In this document: positions 48,429-49,844 of the stretch, one piece after another
How positions within the stretch are numbered: position 1 is the first letter of the stretch
How the letters are laid out: each line of letters begins with the position of its first letter
DNA from: a phage
Assembly: GCA_012557565.1 (NCBI GenBank)
Contig: GCA_012557565.1_3926.1
Direction: 5' to 3' (one strand)
Length of the DNA: 64,000 bases
Translations under genes and position numbers: made by a program
Notes under the pieces: generated by a model
The model's database searches: none
Told to the model about the DNA's origin: nothing
What the model saw: the letters and a program-made list of their open reading frames with translations, nothing else

Positions 48429-49844
48429 ATGAGCGAATTATTTAAACACTCGCATTTACATGCAGGTTTAACTGAAAACGGTGCTGTTAACCACACCTCT
48501 TCAATGTCTGCACTGGTAGATTTCTACAAAGCTGCTGGTTCAAGCAGAACAAACGTAGAAGTTCTTCCAAACTTGTTTTACAAGGCAATGCGAGAAGATA
48601 TTGATGTAGCAGTTCGAATTCTGTTACATATGCGAGATGCACGAGAAGGTATGGGTGAGCGTAAAGCGTTCCGTTATACTCTTACTAAAGCAATCTCTGA
48701 CGGTATTCTTGATGAGTTCCAAGTGTTACGTATCATGGACAAGATTTCTGATTTAGGTCGTTATGATGACTTTAAAATCTTTGTTGATACACGTTACGAA
48801 ACAGATGCTTTCAAGCATTTAGAAGCTGCACTGTTAGACCCTGCAACATCGGCTCTGGCAGCAAAATGTTTACCACGAGTAAAATCACGACACATGCGTT
48901 TTGTTCGTCGTTTCTGTAAGTTTGCAAATCTTTCAGAGAAGCAGTATCGAGTTCTTCTGTCAGCACTGTCTGACACCGTTGAACAAAAGATTTCAGCAAA
49001 TGAATTTGGAGAAATTGATTACAGCAAGCTTCCTTCACTGGCTGCTGCACGTTATCAAAAACTCTTCAGTCGTAAAGATGGTGAGCGTTATGCAGCATAC
49101 ATTGCAGCACTGACTAAAGGTGAGACAAAGATTAATGCTGGTGCAGTCTACCCTTATGACATTACGAAGTCAGTTGGTTATGGTAATGCAACCGTTGCAA
49201 ATGAACAGTGGAAAGCTTTACCAAACTTGATGAAAGATGGTGAAAACATTCTGTGCATGGCAGATGTATCTTCATCTATGACTTGGGAGCGACATGGTTC
49301 TGTTACAGCGCTAGACATTGGTGTATCTTTAGCCCTTTACGTTTCAGAACGTAACACAGGTTGCTTTAAAGATGAATTGATGGTTTACTCTAGCAGACCT
49401 CACTTCATCACATTGAGTGGTGATTTACAGACTCGCTTACGTCAAGTGAAGAGTCATGTAGAGTATGGTTCAACTGACCTACAAGCTGCTTTTGCAAGAA
49501 TCCTTGAGATTGGTGTTAAAAACAACTTGACTCAGAAAGAGATGCCTAGTAAGCTTATCATCTTCTCTGATATGCAGTTTAATCAGGTTGATGGAGCAGA
49601 TGGTCGTACTAACTTTGAAGCAATTCAAGAAAAGTACAAGAAAGCTGGATATGAGATGCCACAACTGGTATTCTGGTACTTAGCAAACCGTAATGGTACT
49701 TGCGAAGTGTCTGTAAAGGATAACGGTGTAGCAATGGTATCTGGTTTCTCTCCAGCCACTTTAAAAGCTTTGCTTGGTGGTGAGAAGTTTGACCCTATCA
49801 GCGTAATGCTCAAAGCAGTAATGATTGAACGCTACGATTGGTAA
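48429..49844 (+). CDS. von Willebrand factor A (vWA) domain protein, possibly Ro60/TROVE-like
   Basis: 471 aa; MIDAS-type motif ILCMADVSSSM, later GSTD and IIFSDMQF blocks, C-terminal G-F containing segment; architecture resembles the C-terminal vWA of Ro60-family proteins but N-terminal TROVE similarity could not be checked. Confidence 0.5.
   Translation: MSELFKHSHLHAGLTENGAVNHTSSMSALVDFYKAAGSSRTNVEVLPNLFYKAMREDIDVAVRILLHMRDAREGMGERKAFRYTLTKAISDGILDEFQVLRIMDKISDLGRYDDFKIFVDTRYETDAFKHLEAALLDPATSALAAKCLPRVKSRHMRFVRRFCKFANLSEKQYRVLLSALSDTVEQKISANEFGEIDYSKLPSLAAARYQKLFSRKDGERYAAYIAALTKGETKINAGAVYPYDITKSVGYGNATVANEQWKALPNLMKDGENILCMADVSSSMTWERHGSVTALDIGVSLALYVSERNTGCFKDELMVYSSRPHFITLSGDLQTRLRQVKSHVEYGSTDLQAAFARILEIGVKNNLTQKEMPSKLIIFSDMQFNQVDGADGRTNFEAIQEKYKKAGYEMPQLVFWYLANRNGTCEVSVKDNGVAMVSGFSPATLKALLGGEKFDPISVMLKAVMIERYDW

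Follow-up and report, generated by a model that had tools for sequence, protein, structure and literature searches.

A predicted Ro60-type phage protein and a structured RNA family linked to its gene

Just upstream of a tRNA array in a phage genome lies a gene for a 471-aa protein with a vWA domain in its C-terminal part. Is this protein a relative of Ro60, and does the neighbouring array hold RNAs that it would bind? We analyzed the gene and its surroundings within a stretch of 64,000 nucleotides (the window; contig GCA_012557565.1_3926.1) and compared them with related phage loci.

The 471-aa protein and its relation to Ro60

The 471-aa reading frame described in the initial annotation is present in the ORF list on the + strand, with the following features:

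48363..48391, + strand: TTGACA-17-TAGAGT, a putative sigma-70-like promoter ahead of the Ro60-like gene, 10/12 consensus match
48429..49844, + strand: Ro60-like protein gene, 471 aa, ATG start, DUF2828+DUF7788, PHROG 850
48429..49238, + strand: predicted N-terminal all-alpha HEAT/TROVE-like solenoid, about aa 1-270, from the structure model and its superposition on Ro60
49251..49793, + strand: C-terminal vWA domain with intact MIDAS, from the DUF7788 match and invariant MIDAS residues

A promoter belonging to this gene alone had been proposed. Both of its hexamers, TTGACA (48363-48368) and TAGAGT (48386-48391), are present on the + strand with 17 nt between them, but the pattern is not significant. 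The region holds 11 promoter-like sites compared with 9.0 +/- 3.6 in shuffles; since the site count does not exceed that of the shuffles, promoter function is only presumed.

The MIDAS-type vWA signature could be read directly from the alignment, with DVSSSM at aa 279-284, GSTD at aa 347-350 and IIFSDMQF at aa 377-384. The pattern DxSxS...T...D corresponds to D279, S281, S283, T349 and D381, all of which are invariant in 42 homologues with identities down to 40%. DUF7788 (PF25043) matched aa 275-455 with E=6e-44 (150.3 bits against a curated cut-off of 27.1), DUF2828 (PF11443) scored 93.9 bits against a cut-off of 29, and phrog_850 matched the full length, residues 1-471, with E=1.7e-175. Both Pfam domains were matched by all 42 aligned relatives; VWA_2 was matched by 27 of the 42, and the "Ro60 vWA domain" PF25045 gave weak matches in nine. 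Judged at the sequence level, the evidence for a vWA domain is far beyond chance.

The Ro60-like reading of the protein, originally drawn from domain order, was borne out by fold comparison. The structure model predicts an all-alpha N-terminal part and superposes on Ro60 over its full length, so that the modelled protein has the Ro60 arrangement, in which a C-terminal vWA domain closes a ring of alpha-helical HEAT repeats. Many Arg and Lys residues of the predicted solenoid are invariant in the 42 homologues, among them R40, R69, R72, R78, R111 and K146. When a viral structure library was compared, DUF2828/DUF7788 proteins gave TM scores of 0.8-0.9 and canonical TROVE phage proteins 0.5-0.65. 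A TROVE region recognizable from sequence did not hold up: Pfam TROVE (PF05731) had no match at E<=1 in the protein or its 42 relatives, and PDB Ro60 had no match at E<=10 by phmmer or with a family profile. None of the sequence-only routes (Pfam, NCBIfam, PDB phmmer, family profile) gave a link to Ro60, and the relationship is thus visible by fold comparison only. The model comparison shows the predicted structure to be of Ro60 type, placing the protein in a large, sequence-divergent branch (DUF2828+DUF7788, PHROG 850).

Clustering at 50% identity divides this branch into 8,895 groups, and 710 of the 50,697 phage genome records on deposit contain a homologue. Besides phages, giant viruses that infect protists have members, and DUF2828 is carried by Pithovirus LCPAC304, Marseillevirus LCMAC202 and CroV; Pfam describes the branch from eukaryotes too. 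Searches for literature on DUF2828/UCP015417 returned plant papers only.

The orthologue in phage Bas63, gp130 (bas63_0130), shares 83% identity over 471/471 aa without gaps, and both genes lie between a DUF5681 gene and tRNA-Pro/Glu/Met. The phage of the window is Sf13/Moogle-like and belongs to a genus other than that of Bas63. A 2024 PhageMaP preprint reported that Bas63 gp130 counters the Ppl defence and that gp130 by itself, whether supplied from a plasmid or placed in T7, is enough to restore plaque formation on Ppl (PMC11482910). The one studied member of the DUF2828 family is an anti-defence factor against Ppl. The same preprint called gp130 Ro60-like, guessed that Y RNAs lie among the tRNAs, and discussed phage tRNA regions as hot spots for counter-defence cargo (PMC11482910). 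It identified no RNA and suspected the annotated tRNAs, whereas the candidate RNA elements lie in the spacers or beneath mis-called mini-ORFs. Thus, the Ro60-like nature, the anti-Ppl activity of gp130 and the Y RNA guess were already known; what is new is the RNA.

RNA elements in the tRNA spacers

An array of 25 tRNAs begins 166 nt downstream of the Ro60-like gene, and the stem elements that had been mentioned there are real. Four structured elements occupy tRNA spacers at 50176-51039, clustered within 900 nt:

49863..49982, + strand: TTGACA-17-TAATAT and TTGACA-18-TATAGT, two promoter-like sites preceding the tRNA/RNA array
50010..50737, + strand: flanking tRNAs Pro, Glu, Met, Asn, Tyr and Asp, in the same transcription unit
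50176..50248, + strand: short-type RNA element 1, in the spacer from tRNA-Glu to tRNA-Met; model R1 score 35.9 bits, E=9e-6
50339..50410, + strand: short-type RNA element 2, in the spacer from tRNA-Met to tRNA-Asn; R1 score 43.6 bits, E=1e-7
50822..50899, + strand: short-type RNA element 3, after tRNA-Asp; R1 score 41.1 bits, E=5e-7
50910..51039, + strand: RNA element 4, long tRNA-like type, closing module plus tRNA-like interior

The tRNA-Tyr gene at about 50569-50653 was missed by ARAGORN and matches annotated tRNA-Tyr genes in relatives.

All four elements belong to a covarying RNA family of the form AAG-stem-YWCAGCAA...stem-CUG. Its phage consensus is uuaAAG-stem-uUACAGCAA...stem-CUGuua, with YWCAGCAA commonly UUACAGCAA. 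Element 1 is laid out as GAC[AGA]AGACCAA-UUACAGCAA...UUGGUCU[G]GUC, and elements 1-3 have 62-68 nt between stem ends and an extra outer helix. Paralogues covary within each element (AGACCAA/UUGGUCU compared with AGACCGU/ACGGUCU), and element 2 shows the compensatory change UUAC/GUAA to UUGC/GCAA in relatives. Both inside a phage genus and from one genus to another, compensatory substitutions maintain the stems while the interior sequences diverge, and the termini, AAG...CUG, are conserved and discrete. An alternative pairing, in which GGUCUGG would form the 5' strand of a stem around tRNA-Met as a vertebrate-like GGUC[C]GA Ro site, was rejected because the covariation lies within elements and not across neighbours, and because Yersinia phage P778 does not preserve the GGUC.

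Within the shared closing module, element 4 has a T-arm, then a hairpin capped by UACG and lastly a D-like arm, the order inside the closing stem being GAAGGUUCGAAUCCUUC, then ACACGU-UACG-GCGUGU, then GGUGUAAUGGAAGCAC. The Rfam tRNA model scores 30.9 bits over 50918-50992, and R1 covers only the 5' half of the element. Given related long elements, we rejected the reading of element 4 as an ordinary degraded tRNA and preferred a YrlA-like layout. Annotators label such long-element loci "tRNA-OTHER" or pseudo-tRNA. Across the family, the module is carried alone, with a permuted tRNA mimic or with a normal-order tRNA body.

Beyond the window, the RNA family adjoins DUF2828 genes across many phage lineages. 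Gene and element share the strand in every case and lie a median of 229 nt apart, with the element either upstream or downstream. The model gave 68 hits compared with 0 in controls (920 kb of control DNA). Conversely, a DUF2828 gene lies near 75 of 80 real elements (94%) but near 0 of 40 chance matches, the latter set coming from a viral-contig scan with GAAGACCNNNNACAGCAA that yields mostly chance matches. Protein family and RNA family thus show tight two-way genomic linkage. About half to two thirds of DUF2828 loci have an element inside +/-6 kb, in phages with and without adjacent tRNAs and with hosts from Proteobacteria to Actinobacteria. The invariant motif is kept across phages whose proteins share only 30-45% identity, and tandem arrays reach up to five elements. 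Positions vary: in Aeromonas LAh_9 and Campylobacter CP30A the elements occupy the gene's 5' leader, right ahead of the ribosome-binding site, and at many metagenomic loci they start 8-60 nt past the stop codon. The same elements are present in Bas63, in the spacers or beneath the mis-called minus-strand mini-ORFs bas63_0137 and bas63_0138.

The R1 training sequences and alignment A3 were chosen by a descriptor that demands the helix, which lends the pairing percentage some circularity; this does not apply to the strand, control and reverse tests. A MAFFT alignment divided the 3' strand, and the alignment was remade by building a model and re-aligning. At Rfam gathering thresholds, the window and 18 related loci returned tRNAs only, and we found no prior description of the phage RNA in Rfam or the searched literature. 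The annotation of these loci is corrected accordingly, with RNAs placed in "empty" tRNA spacers, beneath the spurious mini-ORFs of Bas63 or at the mis-set start codon of LAh9_43.

Candidate roles of the elements

We consider it probable that the 471-aa product is a Ro60-type ring and that the four spacer elements are its cognate RNAs, functional analogues of Y RNAs. We infer physical binding, a processing route and a role as an RNP. The promoters at 49863/49953 would drive transcription of the elements together with the tRNAs. Excision of the neighbouring tRNAs by RNase P and 3' tRNA-processing enzymes would then release the elements; for elements 1-2 this would be processing of the flanking tRNAs at 50010..50737. 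Once released, an element may be protected by its terminal stem. The protein could read the closing module through the unpaired A, the AG:CU stem base, the single-stranded YWCAGCAA and the unpaired G that follows the 3' strand. The short elements may serve as plain ligands or gates of the ring, and the permuted tRNA-like domain of element 4 could, as in YrlA, tether the RNP to tRNA- or RNA-processing enzymes.

Because gp130 alone counters Ppl, the only function demonstrated does not need phage RNAs, and its activity in a heterologous phage would suit a stand-alone inhibitor that binds Ppl or a host factor, for instance via the MIDAS face. The RNAs would then be independent, unbound cargo, acting for example as decoys or sponges against host nucleases or against defences that target tRNAs. 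The invariance of the MIDAS residues, typically protein-ligand sites, fits this proposal, as do the lack of a known Ro60-binding motif in the RNAs and the record of phage tRNA regions as hot spots for counter-defence cargo. However, a shared accessory region would lead one to expect much looser linkage than is seen: strand and short distance are kept, the association holds upstream or downstream of the gene, with or without adjacent tRNAs and in hosts from Proteobacteria to Actinobacteria, and the gene stands beside nearly all true elements. What is conserved, moreover, is the full predicted Ro60 ring, including an RNA-binding solenoid with invariant basic residues, and not the vWA domain alone. 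We therefore judge the combination of free inhibitor and unbound RNAs unlikely.

The positions in LAh_9 and CP30A, directly ahead of the ribosome-binding site, together with the many metagenomic elements just after the stop codon and the placement of the window's elements in tRNA spacers, would suit cis signals, either processing or stability determinants of tRNA precursors or autoregulatory mRNA sites for the protein. Yet two promoter-like sites and two tRNAs separate gene and elements in the window and in Bas63, tandem arrays occur, and one subclass has a complete tRNA-like domain, which a processing signal does not need. Conserved, discrete AAG...CUG ends are as expected of a mature small RNA. 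An interrupted stem of 11 bp, as found in the elements, is too short for RNase III. On this evidence a cis-acting role seems quite improbable. Functionless leftovers, either decayed tRNA genes or remnants of small mobile repeats, would account for the tRNA-model score of element 4, the pseudo-tRNA labels and the close grouping of four similar copies. This reading is strongly disfavoured, given stems preserved by compensatory substitutions while interiors drift, a motif invariant among phages with highly diverged proteins, and the absence of hits in control DNA.

If the elements are the cognate RNAs of the Ro60-type ring, a very large, uncharacterized protein family gains a concrete candidate RNA partner. 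A second lineage would then share the Ro60/Y-RNA design but recognize RNA through a different module, which would inform how Ro60 rings read RNAs and why Y RNAs mimic tRNA.

Comparison with Ro60, Y RNAs and Class I RNAs

Ro60 and Rsr share the overall fold predicted for the 471-aa protein, a HEAT/TROVE ring plus a MIDAS vWA domain, but the phage protein is about 60 residues shorter and has no detectable TROVE sequence signature. In Ro60, the outer surface holds Y RNA, and the ends of single-stranded RNA enter the central cavity. Thermus phage phiLo also encodes a Ro60 protein, phiRo60 (PDB 9KOP, 9L5Y), which is annotated as a TROVE-domain protein, whereas ours belongs to the DUF2828 branch. 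The partner RNAs of phiRo60, Yrl1/Yrl2, are defined by a CGAA motif (PMC12135203); the spacer elements described here carry a different one.

Like the Y RNAs of Ro60/Rsr, the phage elements are several small RNAs of 60-130 nt, adjacent to the gene and on the same strand, whose 5' and 3' ends pair into a stem bearing conserved recognition elements. YrlA (RF02553) and a phage subclass share a permuted tRNA-like domain with T-arm, closed acceptor hairpin and D-arm; in element 4, a terminal stem surrounds this domain with the arms in the order of the Rfam YrlA consensus. The closing modules differ. Known Ro60-contact motifs in RNAs are GGUCCGA, the proposed GNCGAAN0-1G near the YrlA 5' end, and CGAA, and all three are absent from the phage closing module, which instead reads AAG-stem-YWCAGCAA...CUG. 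The 5' strand of element 4, CAGAAGACCGUUUACAGCAAAC, lacks GNCGAAN0-1G, and the sole CGAA of the element is in the T-loop. The Rfam YrlA model had no match at E<=10 on 50895-51060 (gathering score 69 bits); its single match in the window, at 21.5 bits, lies over tRNA-His/Phe, and related long elements in loci L181 and L191 score 25-39 bits, below gathering. Additionally, the phage RNAs are inside a tRNA operon, and not beside an rtcBA repair operon.

The phage closing module closely resembles Dictyostelium Class I RNAs (RF01414) in their defining features. Class I RNAs have a short terminal stem conserved in structure and not in sequence, a motif adjoining the 5' stem strand, an AAG start, a CUGU end and a length of 42-65 nt (Kjellin et al. 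2021, PMC7919456). Elements 1-3 have the same stem, motif position and AAG/CUG ends. Both groups start with AAG, end with CUG(U) and have an A-rich 3' part of the loop; phage elements measure 45-80 nt, and the phage module about 45-70 nt. Directly 3' of the 5' stem strand, the Rfam Class I consensus has CCUUACAGCAA where the phages have YWCAGCAA, and G stands 8 nt from CAGCAA in the phage elements, compared with 9 nt in the Rfam consensus. RF01414 was the sole non-tRNA Rfam family to match short phage elements, at full length, on the correct strand and with 21-30 bits (23.4, 24.9 and 21.2 bits for the window; the best phage copies reached 24-30 bits); at the gathering score of 41.5, there was no match in 11 loci. 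Class I genes are dispersed and nuclear, with a DUSE promoter about 60 nt upstream, in contrast to phage elements in a bacterial-type tRNA operon. Published work describes Class I RNAs as restricted to dictyostelids and as bound by the RRM protein Rnp1A (PMC7919456).

The likeness may bear on what Class I RNAs bind. We tentatively raise the possibility, rather doubtful at present, that phage and Class I RNAs form a single family, whose members serve the DUF2828/DUF7788 Ro60-like branch as dedicated "Y RNAs". If true, Class I RNAs would not be a dictyostelid invention tied to multicellularity. They would instead be the eukaryotic representatives of an ancient Ro60-like RNP spread by viruses, and one would expect to find a DUF2828-type protein among their binding partners.

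Predicted fold and surroundings of the gene

Over 47800-50000, the window shares 98-99% identity with Shigella phages ESh19 and Sf13-Sf19 and 92% with Citrobacter phages Mordin, Moogle and Michonne, which identifies it as a Felix-O1-like myovirus of the subfamily Ounavirinae. The promoter-like sequence proposed in the initial annotation was found ahead of the gene, and all three vWA motifs named there are present in the ORF (aa 279-284, 347-350 and 377-384).

Features of the locus
48363-48391: putative promoter TTGACA-17-TAGAGT, ahead of the Ro60-like gene
48429-49844, + strand: Ro60-like gene, ORF of 471 aa
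50176-50248, + strand: RNA element 1, AU-rich interior
50339-50410, + strand: RNA element 2, AU-rich interior
50822-50899, + strand: RNA element 3, AU-rich interior
50910-51039, + strand: RNA element 4, perfect T-arm inside

The motifs contain a complete MIDAS pattern (D279, S281, S283, T349 and D381) that is invariant over 42 homologues with identity down to 40%. Pfam assigns DUF2828 (best stretch aa 171-269) and DUF7788 (aa 275-455) to the protein, and PHROGs places it in family 850, labelled 'RNA-binding protein' (E=1.7e-175). Sequence searches of the PDB gave no match, whether run with the protein alone or with the family profile. The Pfam model for the vWA domain of Ro60 itself weakly matched 9 of the 42 relatives (best E=9e-4). 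At 50% identity the family splits into 8,895 clusters. Among phage genome records, 710 carry a homologue; their hosts differ as widely as Escherichia, Vibrio, Campylobacter, Listeria, Staphylococcus, Bacillus and Mycobacterium, and the names given to the proteins vary (RNA-binding protein, vWFA protein, DUF2828 or 'Ro-like RNA binding protein').

An AlphaFold2 model generated from the 42-sequence alignment was confident (pLDDT 87.5, pTM 0.87); in it the N-terminal part is all-alpha and the C-terminal domain alpha/beta. When this model was compared with the PDB using Foldseek, the best 11 matches were all Ro60 structures aligned over the full length (E=1e-8 to 2e-6), namely human and Xenopus Ro60, Deinococcus Rsr and Thermus phage phiRo60; only isolated vWA domains ranked below them. 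In a viral structure library, the nearest proteins were of the DUF2828/DUF7788 type, from phages and giant viruses (Pithovirus LCPAC304, TM 0.87; Marseillevirus, CroV, ChoanoV1 and Bodo saltans virus), with proteins annotated TROVE or 'Ro-like' lower, at TM 0.5-0.65. The Ro60-like reading thus held for the fold, by full-length superposition of the model on Ro60, but not for a TROVE sequence match, which was absent in Pfam for the protein and all 42 relatives. We conclude that the protein, as modelled, is a Ro60-fold member of a separate, sequence-divergent branch, and the fold itself we regard as almost certain.

Two small features flank the gene. Just 5' lies a co-oriented basic ORF of 123 aa (47981-48352) encoding a DUF5681 protein (E=1e-13). 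Because SUSP2, Bas63 and Yersinia phage P778 each have a co-oriented ORF about as small at the same place, it may share a module with the Ro60-like gene. Directly 3' of the stop codon, a 12-bp hairpin (49855-49886) overlaps the -35 box of the first downstream promoter-like site; lacking a T-tract, it is no canonical terminator.

Structured RNA elements in the tRNA array

The gene is followed by an array of 25 tRNA genes. ARAGORN overlooked a tRNA-Tyr with a long variable arm at 50569-50653, which scores only 22.8 bits with the Rfam tRNA model; its sequence matches annotated tRNA-Tyr genes of Bas63 and of many phages of the T4- and T5-like kinds, which brings the array to at least 26 genes. An odd tRNA-like sequence at 52019-52103 has a good acceptor stem (GGGACGA/CGUCCCA) and T-arm with an aberrant middle. 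No tRNA finder called it in the window, its counterpart in phage REP12 is annotated 'tRNA-OTHER', and it could be another tRNA mimic. The 277-nt gap 3' of tRNA-Ile, in the region 51441-51775, contains a strong promoter-like site, TTGACA-17-TATAGT, at 51514-51542, and a permuted tmRNA match at 51441-51626 is sub-threshold in Rfam (31.3 bits; gathering score 47).

The stem elements noticed earlier near the tRNA cluster proved to be real, as four structured RNA elements in the tRNA spacers. These spacers contain four copies of AGAAGACC-N3-UACAGCAARC, compared with 0.09 expected by chance, each with GGUCUGGU 60-120 nt downstream. All four fold in the same way: a 3-by-1 internal loop separates the outer helix from an inner helix of 7 bp, after which comes single-stranded UACAGCAA. 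Covariation among the paralogues is seen in both the inner helix (AGACCAA/UUGGUCU versus AGACCGU/ACGGUCU) and the outer helix (UGAC/GUCA, UUAC/GUAA and GGAGC/GUUCC), and in other Ounavirinae orthologues the stems are kept by compensatory changes as the interiors drift. Bas63 carries the same elements, two of them beneath small minus-strand 'hypothetical' ORFs. On the Bas63 contig, bas63_0137 and bas63_0138 (minus-strand 'hypothetical protein' CDSs, L212 5749-6023) overlap plus-strand elements 3 and 4. Both CDSs are probably annotation artefacts, and knockout phenotypes credited to them would in fact reflect the RNA elements.

The same RNA was found in unrelated phages. Yersinia phage P778, whose protein is 51% identical, has three copies with layout and motif unchanged and different helices (GGACUGU/ACAGUCC, GGAUUC/GAAUCC and GGACUC/GAGUCC). 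Aeromonas phage LAh_9 has at least seven: five in tandem up to the ribosome-binding site of its DUF2828 gene and two right after tRNAs. Among the tandem copies, R1, a covariance model of the short elements, picked up a further one. Single copies lie directly 5' of the gene in Campylobacter phage CP30A and just 3' of a tRNA in Sinorhizobium phage phiM7 and Vibrio phage D481. Mycobacteriophage Lolly9 has two in the gap 3' of its 'Ro-like' gene, whose product is DUF2828+DUF7788 by Pfam. The consensus is (A)A-AGR-N4-5-(N)YWCAGCAA ... A-rich ... N4-5-YCU-G, with a constant 8 nt from AAG to CAGCAA.

Several further features were observed at these loci. In LAh_9 (L004), the DUF2828 gene LAh9_43 is annotated from a start codon (4866, region 4866-4990) that falls within the tandem elements; the true start is probably ~4986, because protein similarity starts at 5001 and the ribosome-binding site follows the last element. 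At 2334-2450, a 117-nt Rfam tRNA match (53.9 bits) with UACAGCAA inside may be a tRNA with an element-related insertion. A third RNA size class of 165-240 nt occurs in viral loci L142 (for example 7865-8104), L144, L148, L153, L167, L176, L187 and L209; its closing helix GGAUCG/CGAUCC is nearly invariant, it has no T-arm, and it usually directly follows a short element. The DUF2828-bearing viral contig L203 encodes a two-piece permuted cyanobacterial-type tmRNA (116 bits, 5507-5758) and more than 25 tRNAs (1029-5442) beside four short elements.

Linkage of the RNAs to DUF2828 genes

Across 80 diverse DUF2828 loci from viral contigs, helix-flanked T[ATG]CAGCAA occurred 141 times on the gene strand and 31 times on the other, against 12 and 6 in reversed controls. 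These motifs were present in 55 of the 80 loci and concentrated within ~600 nt of either gene end. Trained on 45 short copies, R1 gave 68 matches (E<=0.01) in the 996 kb that surround DUF2828 genes, every one on the gene's strand and 27 outside the training set; other viral contigs, 920 kb in all, yielded none. The matches lay a median of 229 nt from the gene (60 of 68 within 1 kb), and across the 64-kb window R1 recovered the four elements only. In the model alignment, pairing is present in 97.8% of cells (63% in shuffles, at most 48% with the partner slid), with 163 double-sided changes compared with 50 expected and all four Watson-Crick pairs at three positions, figures to be read knowing that the seed descriptor required a helix and the alignment was fitted to the model. 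The AAG/CUG flanks, strand bias, controls and non-training matches are free of that choice.

The reverse test used an RNA-only pattern, AGGATCGNTACAGCAA, which retrieved 120 loci. Where the 3' partner strand was present, 75 of 80 encoded a DUF2828 homologue, which lay 120-1354 nt away and in every case shared the strand, compared with 0 of the 40 without it (chance matches). We consider it very nearly assured that this is a genuine RNA family and that it is linked to the DUF2828 gene.

Comparison with known RNAs and Ro60 systems

The sole non-tRNA Rfam family matching the short elements is RF01414, the Dictyostelium Class I RNAs. Its matches span the full length on the correct strand and score 21-30 bits, where the gathering score is 41.5 (E-values 0.14-0.42, the factor of 4,227 families included). 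Class I RNAs are 42-65 nt long; their short terminal stem is conserved only in structure, an 11-nt motif adjoins its 5' strand, and the AAG start and CUGU end are conserved. These RNAs are reported as unique to dictyostelids, and of four associated proteins mentioned, the sole one named is the RRM protein Rnp1A (Kjellin et al. 2021, PMC7919456). Each feature so defined is common to the Rfam consensus (GaUcuC-CUUACAGCAA...AaaAAAA...GagAuC-UG) and the phage consensus from R1 (uuaAAG-aaugc-uUACAGCAA...AAAaAAAAA-gcauu-CUGuua). A common origin is conceivable, if rather unlikely.

Some of the long elements (90-135 nt) resemble the Y RNA YrlA. A T-arm is frequent in this class, being present in 15 of 48 long elements versus 0 of 44 short ones. 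On viral loci L181 and L191, the Rfam YrlA model gave significant, sub-gathering matches (25-39 bits, E down to 2.6e-6) aligned in the order T-arm, closed acceptor hairpin, D-arm, several of them within elements closed by the AAG/CAGCAA/CUG module. Element 4 shares this order (GAAGGUUCGAAUCCUUC, then ACACGU-UACG-GCGUGU, then GGUGUAAUGGAAGCAC), and its interior folds as the corresponding four-way junction; the YrlA model gave it no score. Two long members, L155 5727-5834 and L190 8513-8616, have their D-arm, anticodon arm and T-arm arranged as in a normal tRNA and the closing module in place of the acceptor stem, a second way to fuse a tRNA body with the module. The module sits where YrlA has its Ro60-binding stem, which is the strongest argument that it would be the RNA-recognition element of the DUF2828 branch.

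We propose that the protein would form a Ro60-like ring, that the four RNAs would be released from the tRNA precursor, and that the closing module would be the site by which the protein binds them. The RNAs might then gate the ring, or tether it to RNA-processing enzymes through the tRNA-like domain of element 4. On balance, we favor the RNAs as ligands of the protein.

Much of the protein half has precedent. The PhageMaP preprint reports that Bas63 gp130 is structurally similar to Ro60 and lies directly upstream of the tRNA genes, and that its deletion renders Bas63 sensitive to the bacterial defence Ppl, which complementation undoes; its authors speculated that some of the tRNAs annotated there are in fact Y RNAs (PMC11482910). 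This protein (bas63_0130, MZ501086) has 471 aa and 83% identity to the window ORF, with no gaps and a shared gene order. Supplied by itself, on a plasmid or as an insertion in T7, gp130 is enough to rescue T7 on Ppl (PMC11482910), which argues against an obligate RNP; the RNAs may therefore have a regulatory role or a second function, for which RNA surveillance or shielding of the phage's tRNAs may be candidates. The structure of a Ro60 from a Thermus phage, which has two Y-like RNAs next to it, has been solved (PMC12135203), and YrlA RNAs lie beside Ro60 genes in >250 bacteria and phages. Given these precedents, the Ro60 interpretation is supported yet not new. No prior description of the phage RNA family was found in Rfam 15 or the searchable literature; the finding is real, its protein half already known and its RNA half undescribed as far as these sources show. 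The protein and its candidate partner RNAs make up a Ro60/Y-RNA kind of system, in which the proposed gating or tethering would parallel Rsr-YrlA-PNPase and phiRo60-Yrl-PNPase.
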